Source: Candidatus Multivoradales bacterium
Lineage (GTDB): Bacteria; Acidobacteriota; Thermoanaerobaculia; Multivoradales; JAHEKO01
DNA length: 64,000 bases
NCBI GenBank assembly: GCA_965248055.1
Contig: CBDFIJ010000004.1
Location: forward strand, 1,056,001 to 1,120,000
Direction of reading: 5' to 3'
This document shows, piece after piece, positions 49,000 through 52,235 of this stretch (positions are counted from its first letter, which is position 1; every line of letters starts with the position of its first letter). The translations under genes were made by a program, and so were the position numbers. The notes below the pieces were generated by a model. The model saw only the letters and a list, made by a program, of their open reading frames with translations. It was not told the DNA's origin and did not search any database.

Positions 49000-50145
49000 T
49001 CACTCTCCTTCCTGCGATTTGGGCTCCCAAGGTAGAGCGAGCAAATCGCCGTTCTGCATACCGACGAACAACGCTGAACTGGAGCTACCAAGGCCTCGCG
49101 GGAGCCCTCTCATCGGTCGCTCCCAACGAAGGCTGCCATCGCTTAGGGCCACAGCGGCTAACTGATCTCGAACACCAACGATGACTTGGTCACCAACGAC
49201 GAGAGGCTCGAAGGTGCCAAACCCACCGACAATGTTGGTTGTGTGGCGCCACAGCTCATGAGAAAGATCTGGAACAACGCAGCTCAATGCATGGTCGGAC
49301 GCACTCAAGCCTTGAGGTGATGCGACCAGCGCCAGAACACAGTTTTCGGTCGCCACCAATTCCCCATAAATCATCCCACCGATAGAGAGCTCGGACACGA
49401 TCGTGCCGTCGGCGCGATGGACGCGAACCATTCCACCTTCGAGCGTGCCGACCACAAGGTCAACGCCGATCGCTACCGCCGAGCTATTGGGAGGACTGGC
49501 AAGCTCAAGGCGCCATATCAAATCACCTGTTACCACGTCATACGCGTCGAGATGACCCGCATTCCAAGGCACATAGTAGCGGCCATCGGCCAACAGTGGA
49601 TCAAAGGGAAAAGCCCCTGAAGCGAGGGCAAACGCGTTTTCCACCCGCCAGCGCGCATCGCCCGTGTCCAGGTCAAACGCAGCCACCTCGCCATTCATCG
49701 CTGCCACCAAGACTGTATCGCCAAACCGCTTCAGGTCGACGGCAACGCCTAACGGAAAGGTGCGCTTCCATCGAGCGGCGCCATCTTTTCGCTCGAAGGC
49801 ATAGATATGGCCAACAGGACGGGCGTCGGAGCCGACGATAACCAGATCGTCAGTTACTAGAACATCGCCGTGGAACTGGGCTGCGGTTCCGTTGGTCGCA
49901 GTGTCGTACTGCCACAATACTGTGCCCGTTTCCGCTTCAAAGGCATAGAAGACGCCTGAGCACGATCCAACATAGACAGCTTCATCCGCGACCGCGGGTG
50001 CGATGAACACTCACCCCTTGGTGTTGAAAGTCCAAGTCGCTTCGGCAGCCAAGCGATCGGCTCGGGCATCCTCCGCACCCAACTGAGCAACGCCCAAGAG
50101 AAAAACGGCACAGGTAAATCGGAACACTGAGGTTAACTCAGTCAT
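49000..50145 (-). CDS. Secreted PQQ-like/BamB-like beta-propeller with in-frame TGA at codon 45 (candidate selenoprotein or nonsense pseudogene)
   Basis: ORFs 50011-50208 and 49000-50010 are in the same frame; signal peptide then repeats such as YAFEAETGTVLW and AFDLDTGDARW. Confidence 0.8.
49981..50007 (-). promoter_or_regulatory. Putative bacterial SECIS hairpin
   Basis: UGA GUG UUCAU-CGCAC-CCGC-GGUC-GCGG-AUGAA; GGUC loop 17 nt after UGA. Confidence 0.6.
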
Positions 50146-50189
50146 GTCGAGAAGATTATCACCATTGCCCATCCTCACGAATGGAAAAT

Positions 50190-50248
50190 ACGGGGACAGG
50201 ATACTCATTTCTCCCTAATTGCTAGTCAGATCACTATCCTGTCCCCGT
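50190..50248. repeat. ACGGGGACAGGATA palindromic element
   Basis: ACGGGGACAGGATA...TATCCTGTCCCCGT perfect 14-bp IR. Confidence 0.85.
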
Positions 50249-50867: not shown

Positions 50868-52235
50868 GAGATATAACCGAAAGTTGTGTATGAGAGTTTG
50901 AAGGCGGCGTATCCTGAGCCCGGTTTTTGTCTGGGTTCAATCATCCAAAAAAGGAGGATACGCCGTTGAGCAAGAGTAACGTAATTTCAATCGATCAGTC
51001 AGAGCGTCCTGAGGACGCTCTGAGCGAGGTCCTTCGCCTGGGTTCACGGCTGCTTCTTTGCGAAGCAATCGAGGCCGAGGTGGCGAGTTTTTTGGCCGAG
51101 TACCAAGATCAACGTACAGCGGCGGGTCACCGCCGTTTGGTGAGAAACGGCTACATGCCGGAGCGGGAGATCCAGACCGGTATAGGTGGAGTTTCAGTCA
51201 AGGTGCCACGGGTGCGGGATCGCCAGGGTGAGCTTCAGTTTCGCTCCAATCTAGTGCCACCGTACCTGCGCCGGTCCAAGAGCGTCGAGGATCTCTTGCC
51301 CTGGCTGTACTTGCGGGGGATATCGACCGGAGACTTCAGCGATGCTCTCGAGGCCCTGGTGGGTCCTGATGCACCTGGGCTTTCAGCTTCGACGGTGAGC
51401 CGGCTCAAACGCGTCTGGGGCCAGGAGTACAGCGAATGGCGGCAGCGCGATCTTTCTTCCAAGCGCTACGTCTACGTATGGGCTGACGGCATCTACTGCA
51501 AGGCTCGTCTGGATAACGCCAAGCTCTGCTTGCTGGTGTTAATTGGGGCCACAGCGGATGGCAACAAGGAGCTGATCGCTGTTGAAGACGGTTACCGGGA
51601 GAGTGAGGCGTCATGGCTGGAGCTGCTGCGAGGCTTGGAGAGAAGAGGCCTTACATTCGAGCCTAAGATCGCAATCGGTGATGGCAACCTGGGTTTCTGG
51701 AAGGCTCTGGCTCAGGTGTGGGGCAATACCAAGACCCAGCGCTGCTGGGTCCACAAGACGGCCAACATCTTGAATAAGCTCCCCAAGGTGATCCAACCCA
51801 AGGCCAAGCAGGCGATCCATCAGATCTGGATGGCCGAGACCAGGAAAGATGCCGAGAGGGCTTTTGATGCATTCCAGGCAATCTACCAAGCCAAATATCC
51901 GAAAGCGGTCCAGTGCTTGGTCAAAGATCGCGACCAGCTACTCGCTTTCTACGATTTCCCGGCTGAGCACTGGCTGCACTTGAGGACCACTAACCCAATC
52001 GAATCAACCTTTGCCACCGTGCGCTTGAGAACCGCCAAGACCCGGGGCTGTCTGTCGAGAGAAACCATGCTCTCGATGGTCTTCAAGCTCTGTCAGAGTG
52101 CTGAGAAACGATGGCGAAGGCTACAGGGCTACAAGCGCATTGCCCAAGTCGTTGAAGGGGTCCATTTCGTCGACGGAGAAAAACAAAATCGGATCGCCGC
52201 CTGATGACCCGATACACAACTTTTGACAATAACTC
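50868..52235 (+). mobile_element. IS256 family insertion sequence
   Basis: Imperfect IRs GAGATATAACCGAAAGTTGTGTAT / ATACACAACTTTTGACAATAACTC; 9-bp target duplication CTCGTTTGG at 50859-50867 and 52236-52244. Confidence 0.95.
50966..52204 (+). CDS. IS256 transposase
   Basis: RBS AAGGAGG and TTG start; RNGY, VPRVRDR, WADGIY, GDG.LGFW, QRCWVH, RTTNPIES. Confidence 0.96.
   Translation: MSKSNVISIDQSERPEDALSEVLRLGSRLLLCEAIEAEVASFLAEYQDQRTAAGHRRLVRNGYMPEREIQTGIGGVSVKVPRVRDRQGELQFRSNLVPPYLRRSKSVEDLLPWLYLRGISTGDFSDALEALVGPDAPGLSASTVSRLKRVWGQEYSEWRQRDLSSKRYVYVWADGIYCKARLDNAKLCLLVLIGATADGNKELIAVEDGYRESEASWLELLRGLERRGLTFEPKIAIGDGNLGFWKALAQVWGNTKTQRCWVHKTANILNKLPKVIQPKAKQAIHQIWMAETRKDAERAFDAFQAIYQAKYPKAVQCLVKDRDQLLAFYDFPAEHWLHLRTTNPIESTFATVRLRTAKTRGCLSRETMLSMVFKLCQSAEKRWRRLQGYKRIAQVVEGVHFVDGEKQNRIAA

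Follow-up and report, generated by a model that had tools for sequence, protein, structure and literature searches.

A conserved in-frame UGA, followed by a SECIS-like hairpin, almost certainly encodes selenocysteine in exported beta-propellers of a mainly acidobacterial family

Does a lone in-frame TGA in a gene for a putative exported beta-propeller protein of Candidatus Multivoradales bacterium end that gene, or does it encode selenocysteine (Sec)? The gene lies on the minus strand of a 64,000-nucleotide stretch of contig CBDFIJ010000004.1 (assembly GCA_965248055.1), hereafter the window. Here, as the original prediction had noticed, the open reading frames (ORFs) 50011–50208 and 49000–50010 form a single frame, whose sole interruption is the TGA at 50011–50013. 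Reading through it from the ATG at 50145 yields the predicted 381-residue product, with Sec as codon 45 (U45) and a cysteine at position 62 (C62), the coding sequence spanning 49003–50145 (minus strand, 381 codons) and ending at a TGA stop codon at 49000–49002. The first ATG of the frame, at 50208, would give a product of 402 residues instead; that at 50145 is the probable start, judging from the orthologs, whose starts lie 24–44 codons before the TGA. The data below indicate that the window gene very probably encodes a true selenoprotein, its UGA being read as Sec by means of SelB and a hairpin, and its product being an exported eight-bladed propeller. Sec insertion would follow the standard bacterial route, in which SelB with Sec-tRNA(Sec) would be recruited by an mRNA hairpin whose GGUC apical loop starts 17 nt after the UGA, and the UGA at 50011–50013 would be decoded as Sec. 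The observations in hand are a conserved UGA, homologs with Cys in its place, a covarying hairpin, the Sec machinery and the protein fold, and the tests of codon, Cys homologs, hairpin and machinery all came out in favour of the Sec insertion proposed at the outset.

We searched 300 genomes of the order to which the window belongs with the read-through protein as query and a match threshold of E ≤ 1e-25. This gave 23 matches in 22 genomes, from 19 genera and 8 of the 12 families, and an in-frame TGA was found at the identical aligned codon in all 23. An even sample of the phylum (401 genomes) added 10 matches, of which the eight from published genomes were examined and the two from unpublished genomes were left out; these eight also have TGA at that codon, which makes 31/31 orthologs overall. 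The order-level orthologs share the site motif W-x-x-[DE]-T-x-G-U-[VIL]-[FY]-x-x-P-[AT]-V, and coding conservation in orthologs is present on both sides of the TGA; in frame and upstream of it lie a start codon and a hydrophobic stretch resembling a signal peptide, and 17–18 residues 3′ of the Sec codon there is a Cys. Because protein identity to the window protein is only 26–42%, synonymous sites are saturated, and a stop codon held in place over such distances must be under selection. The Cys in the window protein, C62 (UGC, 49960–49962, minus strand), lies in a GSCSG motif 17 residues after Sec, in a column that is invariant in the 19-sequence protein alignment A2 and is also Cys in all 97 matches of the pattern scan described below.

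One of the 23 order-level matches, L069 (G046:C5:222108–225740), is a second family copy in its genome. It keeps TGA and hairpin, its upstream part is unrelated, its frame shifts near residue 285, and it is probably a decaying duplicate. It was kept in the 23/23 count and in alignments A1 and A4 and left out of A2, which also omits L024 (an over-long reading past the end) and L056 and L063 (cut by contig ends). That the window gene is a pseudogene or its TGA a sequencing error was considered and rejected, as TGA is kept in every ortholog examined. A read error had been named in the original prediction as something that would tell against it; the contigs of four runs show 0 differences over the stretch, and none at the TGA, at depths of 20–63, the runs being from one sample and one study, probably the source of the assembly, and hence not independent. 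The runs listed for the stretch include none of RNA, which weighs neither way.

Tabulating the aligned codon, a check that had been proposed together with the candidate, also brought out Cys: in four full-length homologs (P0139, P0207, P0208 and P0149), Cys takes the place of Sec and the second Cys is retained as well. The same two columns read Ala and Val in another full-length homolog, P0195, and Arg and Ala in P0037, an ordinary PQQ_2 paralog. The Cys-form homologs make up 4 clusters, compared to about 75 N-truncated clusters of the Sec form in a word-index search alone, and many more Sec forms appeared in a profile search. These sequences point to a classical Sec/Cys pair in which Sec forms are dominant and Cys forms rare; to our knowledge, Cys forms outnumber Sec forms in most selenoprotein families, the reverse of what is seen here. 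The joint loss of both residues in P0195, a single case, hints that the two work as a pair.

The mRNA just after the UGA had been predicted to fold as UUCAU-CGCAC-CCGC-GGUC-GCGG-AUGAA, with GGUC at 17 nt; the RNA has this sequence and spacing and can form that structure. In the window copy, the selenocysteine insertion sequence (SECIS)-like hairpin (49981–50007, minus strand) would consist of a lower stem of UUCAU (50007–50003) with AUGAA (49985–49981), an upper stem of CCGC (49997–49994) with GCGG (49989–49986), and the apical loop GGUC (49993–49990), and its assignment draws on pairing, covariation and synonymous-site constraint at the level of the family. Across the 23 order-level sequences, the hairpin has a 7-bp stem, with consensus CCCCCGC/GCGGGGG, that closes an invariant GGUC loop; in the family the loop, 17 nt after the UGA, is GGUC and rarely GUC or GUUC-type. 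In these 23 sequences, 90.7% of stem cells are paired, compared to 43–66% when the 3′ partners are slid by 1–3 columns, compensatory changes occur in 4/7 stem pairs, and the covariation score of 0.282 (shuffled mean, 0.102) is reached by 0/500 shuffles. With all 31 sequences, 86.2% of cells are paired and the covariation score is 0.273 against 0.117 for shuffles, again reached by 0/500; five sequences with a shifted-register hairpin (GUC or GUUC-type loops) were scored as unpaired in the fixed register. The hairpin is thus kept among homologs, with compensatory changes, as the original prediction had wished to see checked.

The amino acids encoded by the hairpin covary with its stem, PAVA occurring with GCG/CGC, PTVV with ACG/CGU, PVVT with GUG/CAC, PAVV with CGGC/GUCG and PAVS with GCU/AGC, and the stem thereby dictates the protein sequence at the hairpin. 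Codon choice is likewise constrained. The loop Val codon is GTC in 29/31 genes and never GTG, while the 899 other Val codons are GTC in 47.6% and GTG in 36.6% of cases; the codon before it ends in G in 29/31 genes, compared to 32.5% among 1687 Ala/Thr codons at other positions, of which 51.7% end in C, an ending that the codon before the loop Val never has. The bSECIS model, as set out in part of a 2026 catalogue (PMC13188914), has a loop of 3–9 nt, a stem of 4–16 bp and G in the first two loop positions, at 16–37 nt from the UGA and with a minimum free energy of at most −7.5 kcal/mol. When 100 distinct UGA+42-nt sequences of the family were folded without constraint, 75 fell within all four criteria of the model, with a median energy of −15.1 kcal/mol. 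Rfam run on window positions 49800–50200 returned no SECIS family and no credible match, its best three being at chance level (E 0.34–0.82).

That there are no sel genes in the window, a caveat raised in the original prediction, stands as a description of the window and falls away as an obstacle, since selA, selB, selD and tRNA-Sec were all found elsewhere in the genome when it was searched for Sec machinery as then proposed. All four score above their cut-offs (selB, 340.9 bits; selA, 450.2; selD, 347.6; tRNA-Sec, 75.5). The tRNA-Sec gene is at C4:2576758–2576852; within the window, the segment 18790–18874 (minus strand; G000:C4:1074790–1074874) matches the tRNA-Sec model weakly (36.4 bits, gathering score 47) and is most likely an ordinary long-arm tRNA. 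The selD gene (G000:C4:1264931–1265854, L010) is itself a selenoprotein gene (TCG-U-AAK), with one in-frame TGA and a hairpin, GAGUCC-GGUC-GGACUC, whose loop starts 17 nt after its UGA. An fdhA-like molybdopterin oxidoreductase gene (CAAT-U-HAPT; G000:C4:1910217–1912262, L177) also has an in-frame TGA, followed by a hairpin GGUUGCC-GGUCU-GGUAGCC with its loop 18 nt after the UGA; this gene is under the TIGR01553 cut-off (best piece, 128 bits). The likeness to the fdhF SECIS from which the prediction had started therefore holds within this very genome (GGUCU at 18 nt in the fdhA-like gene, GGUC at 17 nt in selD), and the candidate, by its sequence, matches in loop and spacing two textbook selenoprotein genes that would be read by the same SelB.

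To gauge how widely the family occurs, we derived a 37-base degenerate pattern from the alignment, covering T-x-G, UGA and hairpin, and ran it against a set with a single genome for each species; 97/97 of its matches translate to family members. By their record titles, Acidobacteriota account for 79 of the 97 (Thermoanaerobaculia, 25; Pyrinomonadaceae, 22; unspecified, 21; the rest, in small numbers, Polarisedimenticolaceae, Holophagales, Multivoradales, Blastocatellia, Bryobacteraceae and Chloracidobacterium), the others being Gemmatimonadota (9), Eisenbacteria (2), Chloroflexi, Planctomycetota, KSB1 and Zixiibacteriota (1 each) or simply "bacterium" (3). All 97 genomes are metagenome-assembled. 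Ten family-bearing genomes with non-Acidobacteriota labels were checked for Sec machinery, and we found selA in eight, selB in one more, the last being a 1.7-Mb bin. The profile search, which covered 1.84 billion representative proteins, returned many proteins of 300–345 residues in which the match starts at their own residue 1 and at the profile position after Sec, together with three full-length proteins, and the word-index search with one of these added two more full-length ones. The close relatives found in these large protein collections are all N-truncated, those with names being called "BamB" or "PQQ-binding-like repeat protein", since gene callers stop at the TGA and so deprive them of the signal peptide, the propeller-closing strand and the Sec; the nearest, P0003, shares 60% identity with the query over 82% of its length.

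Several observations weigh against Sec insertion, in general or in the window gene. Of 100 distinct family sequences, 25 lack the consensus hairpin when folded without constraint, and the window hairpin is the weakest of the family, with GAU (Asp) where 27/31 genes have Gly (GGN), which leaves an upper stem of 4 bp. The window structure in the consensus register has −7.3 kcal/mol compared to the published −7.5, and the 4-bp stem-loop alone −6.5, while the minimum-energy fold (−11.4 kcal/mol) is in a different register, in which a CGC loop stands 14 nt from the UGA. Folds of the window sequence were no better than those of its shuffles, either over 71 nt (z = +1.21; 183/200 shuffles fold as well) or over 39 nt (z = −0.57; 50/200 shuffles as good, with the minimum-energy fold in the other register), and it is only in the family-wide comparison that the window hairpin exceeds chance. 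Since the degenerate pattern demanded hairpin bases, its 97 matches show breadth and specificity and do not count as hairpin evidence. Likewise, selA is found in 275/300 genomes of the order and in 20/22 of those bearing the family (the two without a match are 86% and 82% complete), and its near-universal presence makes co-occurrence with selA uninformative there, a control that does not discriminate. A same-genus genome, G001 (98% complete), has no copy of the family. Clustering of 2014 ORFs from 98 loci revealed among the conserved neighbours no operon partner that would give a functional lead: widespread occurrence is limited to the family gene (95 loci) and an ORF antisense over it (56 loci), and the next clusters (cupin/DUF4437, protein kinases, histidine kinase, methyltransferase, LysR, AcrB fragment) occur at 15 loci or fewer and are lineage-specific.

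Many of these points would also suit a reading in which the selenoprotein family is real and the window copy is poorly recoded or being lost, most ribosomes stopping at its UGA. The GAU codon, the short stem, the competing fold, the comparison with shuffles and the absence from G001 all speak for it, as does the intact Mutator-family transposase that adjoins the gene; together, the transposase and the absence from the same-genus genome hint at a mobile or recently rearranged neighbourhood, and a recent arrival or an ongoing loss of the window copy is possible. Nevertheless, the window copy has 336 open codons past the UGA with no further defect, has its 60%-identical relative P0003, and retains all the invariant residues of the family, including Cys62, His92 and Asp107. 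In the consensus register its hairpin agrees with the bSECIS model in its GGUC loop, 4-bp stem and 17-nt spacing, that is in three of the four published criteria, and is short of the fourth, the energy, by 0.2 kcal/mol; moreover, other members, with GAG at the Gly codon, likewise have shortened stems. We therefore consider this reading improbable for the window gene, and the other two that we weighed are distinctly more so.

In one of them there is no recoding at all, the TGA ending a short upstream ORF and the propeller starting just after it. This is how the close relatives in protein collections are annotated (300–345 residues, from the residue after the TGA), and in the window the TGA is followed by the codon GTG, which could serve as a start. 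In many orthologs, however, that codon is GTC, ATC or CTC, none of them start codons, and the upstream piece is conserved in frame and bears both the W-x-x-D-T-x-G propeller-closing strand and the only signal peptide. Since, in addition, the four Cys-form homologs are continuous across the site, and unrelated adjacent genes would not share frame and junction codon in 31/31 cases, we give this account hardly any credence. As little can be given to a read-through of the UGA without selenium, by a near-cognate tRNA (Trp, Cys or Arg) or by reassignment, even though the case for Sec is built on comparing sequences, and ordinary read-through, too, can be promoted by a hairpin that follows a stop codon. 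A reassigned genetic code was rejected because TGA terminates the window gene and many orthologs. Further, the loop and spacing match the SECIS elements of selD and the fdhA-like gene in the same genome, selA or selB is present in nine of the ten family-bearing genomes checked among those with other phylum labels, and close full-length homologs replace the UGA by Cys only, the usual partner of Sec. Decoding of the UGA as Sec thus remains the reading that we prefer.

What kind of protein would carry this Sec? The read-through protein matches Pfam PQQ_2 (PF13360) with 104.3 bits (threshold, 27.6), and Pfam PQQ repeats match as well. An AlphaFold2 model built on 19 orthologs is a propeller (mean pLDDT 92.0, pTM 0.87), and its best Foldseek matches in the PDB are BamB structures and designed eight-bladed propellers (TM 0.75–0.88, identity 13–23%). 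The product would then be an exported eight-bladed PQQ_2/BamB-like beta-propeller of about 355 residues after removal of the signal peptide, with Sec about 20 residues from the mature N-terminus. The N-terminus (beginning MTELTSVFRFTCAVFLLGVAQLGA; 50071–50145, minus strand, limits approximate) is signal-peptide-like, to judge from a hydrophobic in-frame stretch that orthologs also have and from a low-confidence helix at residues 2–31 of the model. By eye, the window copy has no clear lipobox. A lipobox-like ...[SN]CAQ does end the N-terminus in L087, L088, L093, L096, L103, L107 and other Pyrinomonadaceae-labelled records, and these copies may, from their sequences, be lipoproteins.

In the model, with A2 numbering, the last blade is closed by the N-terminal strand (residues 34–37), U41 is in the loop before the first inner strand (47–49), and C58 is in the turn between the second and third strands (57–60); in the usual propeller topology, the loops holding Sec and Cys are on the same face of the same blade. 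Thus, in the window protein, Sec45 would sit in the loop leading into the first inner strand of blade 1 and Cys62 in the next turn, on the same face. An invariant His (FHG) and an invariant Asp (GSD) fill the equivalent loops of blade 2 in the model, where the His, which is His92 of the window protein (49870–49872, minus strand; column H88 of A2, still invariant in A3), would hold the position that Sec has in blade 1. Sec45 and Cys62 might then form a redox-active selenenylsulfide, or a chalcogen- or metal-binding site, beside His92 and Asp107. A pairing of Sec with Cys62 fits the data, the Cys being invariant, in a neighbouring loop by topology and lost together with Sec in one homolog, and a selenenylsulfide or chalcogen/metal site on the top face of the propeller is an idea suggested by the model that we hold loosely. 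As to function, we lean tentatively towards redox catalysis in the periplasm or on the cell surface, and rank below it, as rather unlikely, the binding of a metal or metalloid.

How the candidate relates to known proteins can be judged from both its recoding signals and its fold. With fdhF/FdhA and SelD genes it has in common the existence of Cys-containing homologs, and also an in-frame UGA with a stem-loop, 16–37 nt downstream, that has G in its first loop positions (PMC13188914). Unlike known selenoproteins, it has U-x16-C and not UxxC or CxxU, and it is unrelated to any of the 119 families/subfamilies in Table 1 of the catalogue (PMC13188914). In fold it resembles BamB (YfgL), also an exported, eight-bladed PQQ_2-type propeller (Foldseek 3q54, 8orr and 3q7m; E ~1e-21, TM 0.75–0.84), with an identity of only 17–18%. 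BamB is a lipoprotein of the outer-membrane beta-barrel assembly machine and, as far as we know, has no Sec and no conserved Cys pair. The candidate is well below the BamB equivalogs TIGR03300 (105.5 bits vs 285.2) and NF008351 (76.9 vs 423), and the database name "BamB" on family members is a repeat-level label only. PQQ-dependent alcohol and glucose dehydrogenases likewise have PQQ/PQQ_2 repeat matches and an eight-bladed propeller; compared to them, the candidate is far shorter (about 355 mature residues), scores under TIGR03075 (60.9 bits vs 480.05) and TIGR03074 (31.6 vs 832.65), and shows nothing that suggests PQQ binding. Finally, the tetrathionate hydrolase of Acidithiobacillus ferrooxidans (7cqy, 6l8a) is exported, has the same fold and acts on an inorganic sulfur compound; it comes at rank 45 in Foldseek (E 2.5e-17, TM 0.74, identity 15–16%), below the BamB structures. 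That the same fold carries chalcogen chemistry without PQQ in this enzyme offers a lead for function and not a relationship.

Some family members depart from this plan, and the surroundings of the window gene also deserve mention. P0024, P0027, P0029 and P0088 (about 583–599 residues) have an additional C-terminal domain of about 260 residues with no precomputed Pfam match, which ESM Atlas puts beside ChaN/Tiki-type "Cofac_haem_bdg" clusters (score 0.97, 225/256 features), the Cofac_haem_bdg Pfam family being present on 22–36% of the members of those clusters; a link of this subgroup to haem or metal handling is possible and is offered as a lead only. Another extension, of about 150 residues, is present at the C-terminus of P0097 (492 residues) and is glyoxalase/VOC-like by eye only. 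Around the window gene, the original prediction had seen frameshift decay in neighbouring genes, and this was not borne out for the nearest ones: the four nearest Pfam-matched neighbours, encoding a major facilitator superfamily (MFS) transporter, the Mutator-family transposase, DUF1272 and Bax1-I, look whole. The Mutator-family (IS256-like) transposase (50927–52204, plus strand; 425 residues; Transposase_mut, 219.8 bits over profile positions 19–377 of 379) faces away from the selenoprotein gene, about 720 bases upstream of it.

The original prediction knew of no selenoprotein family with this fold, and Table 1 of the 2026 catalogue and the main texts of other sources are in agreement. None of the 119 prokaryotic families/subfamilies in that table is a PQQ, BamB or propeller entry by name or domain ID (PMC13188914). 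The same terms are absent from the main texts of BSepDB (PMC13326102) and deep-Sep (PMC12013277), as distinct from their supplementary gene lists, and from the main texts of a 2022 review (PMC9312934), a 2022 preprint on eight new families (bioRxiv 10.1101/2022.07.06.499078), and the GOS (Global Ocean Sampling) paper and a 2006 survey (PMC2398784, PMC1794560). A full-text literature search found no description of a bacterial Sec-containing PQQ-like, BamB-like or beta-propeller protein, and NCBIfam release 20.0 has no model for the family. Recoding here follows the ordinary mechanism; the novelty lies with the family and with its fold, exported location and range.

Comparison of its sequences thus places the window gene almost certainly in a widespread and misannotated family of exported beta-propellers, mainly of Acidobacteriota, in which TGA encodes Sec. 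Recognising the family corrects hundreds of annotations and provides a clean natural case of an RNA structure that limits the amino acid choice of a protein, PAVA, PTVV and PAVS covarying with the stem. The known selenoproteome, which is dominated by thioredoxin-like folds as portrayed in parts of the 2026 catalogue (PMC13188914), gains a new fold and an exported location. In its widest form, which we put forward with reserve, this would be the first beta-propeller selenoprotein family, an exported selenoenzyme, anchored to lipid in some lineages, that normally has Sec and only rarely Cys and is widespread in uncultured Acidobacteriota and Gemmatimonadota of soil and sediment. If Sec45, Cys62, His92 and Asp107 do form one site on the top face, its selenium-dependent chemistry, of a redox or chalcogen/metal kind, would take place outside the cytoplasm, something not known of any catalogued bacterial selenoprotein of this architecture. 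Abundant soil phyla would then be using selenium at the cell surface, and in soil Acidobacteriota the family provides a selenium-dependent function open to testing.

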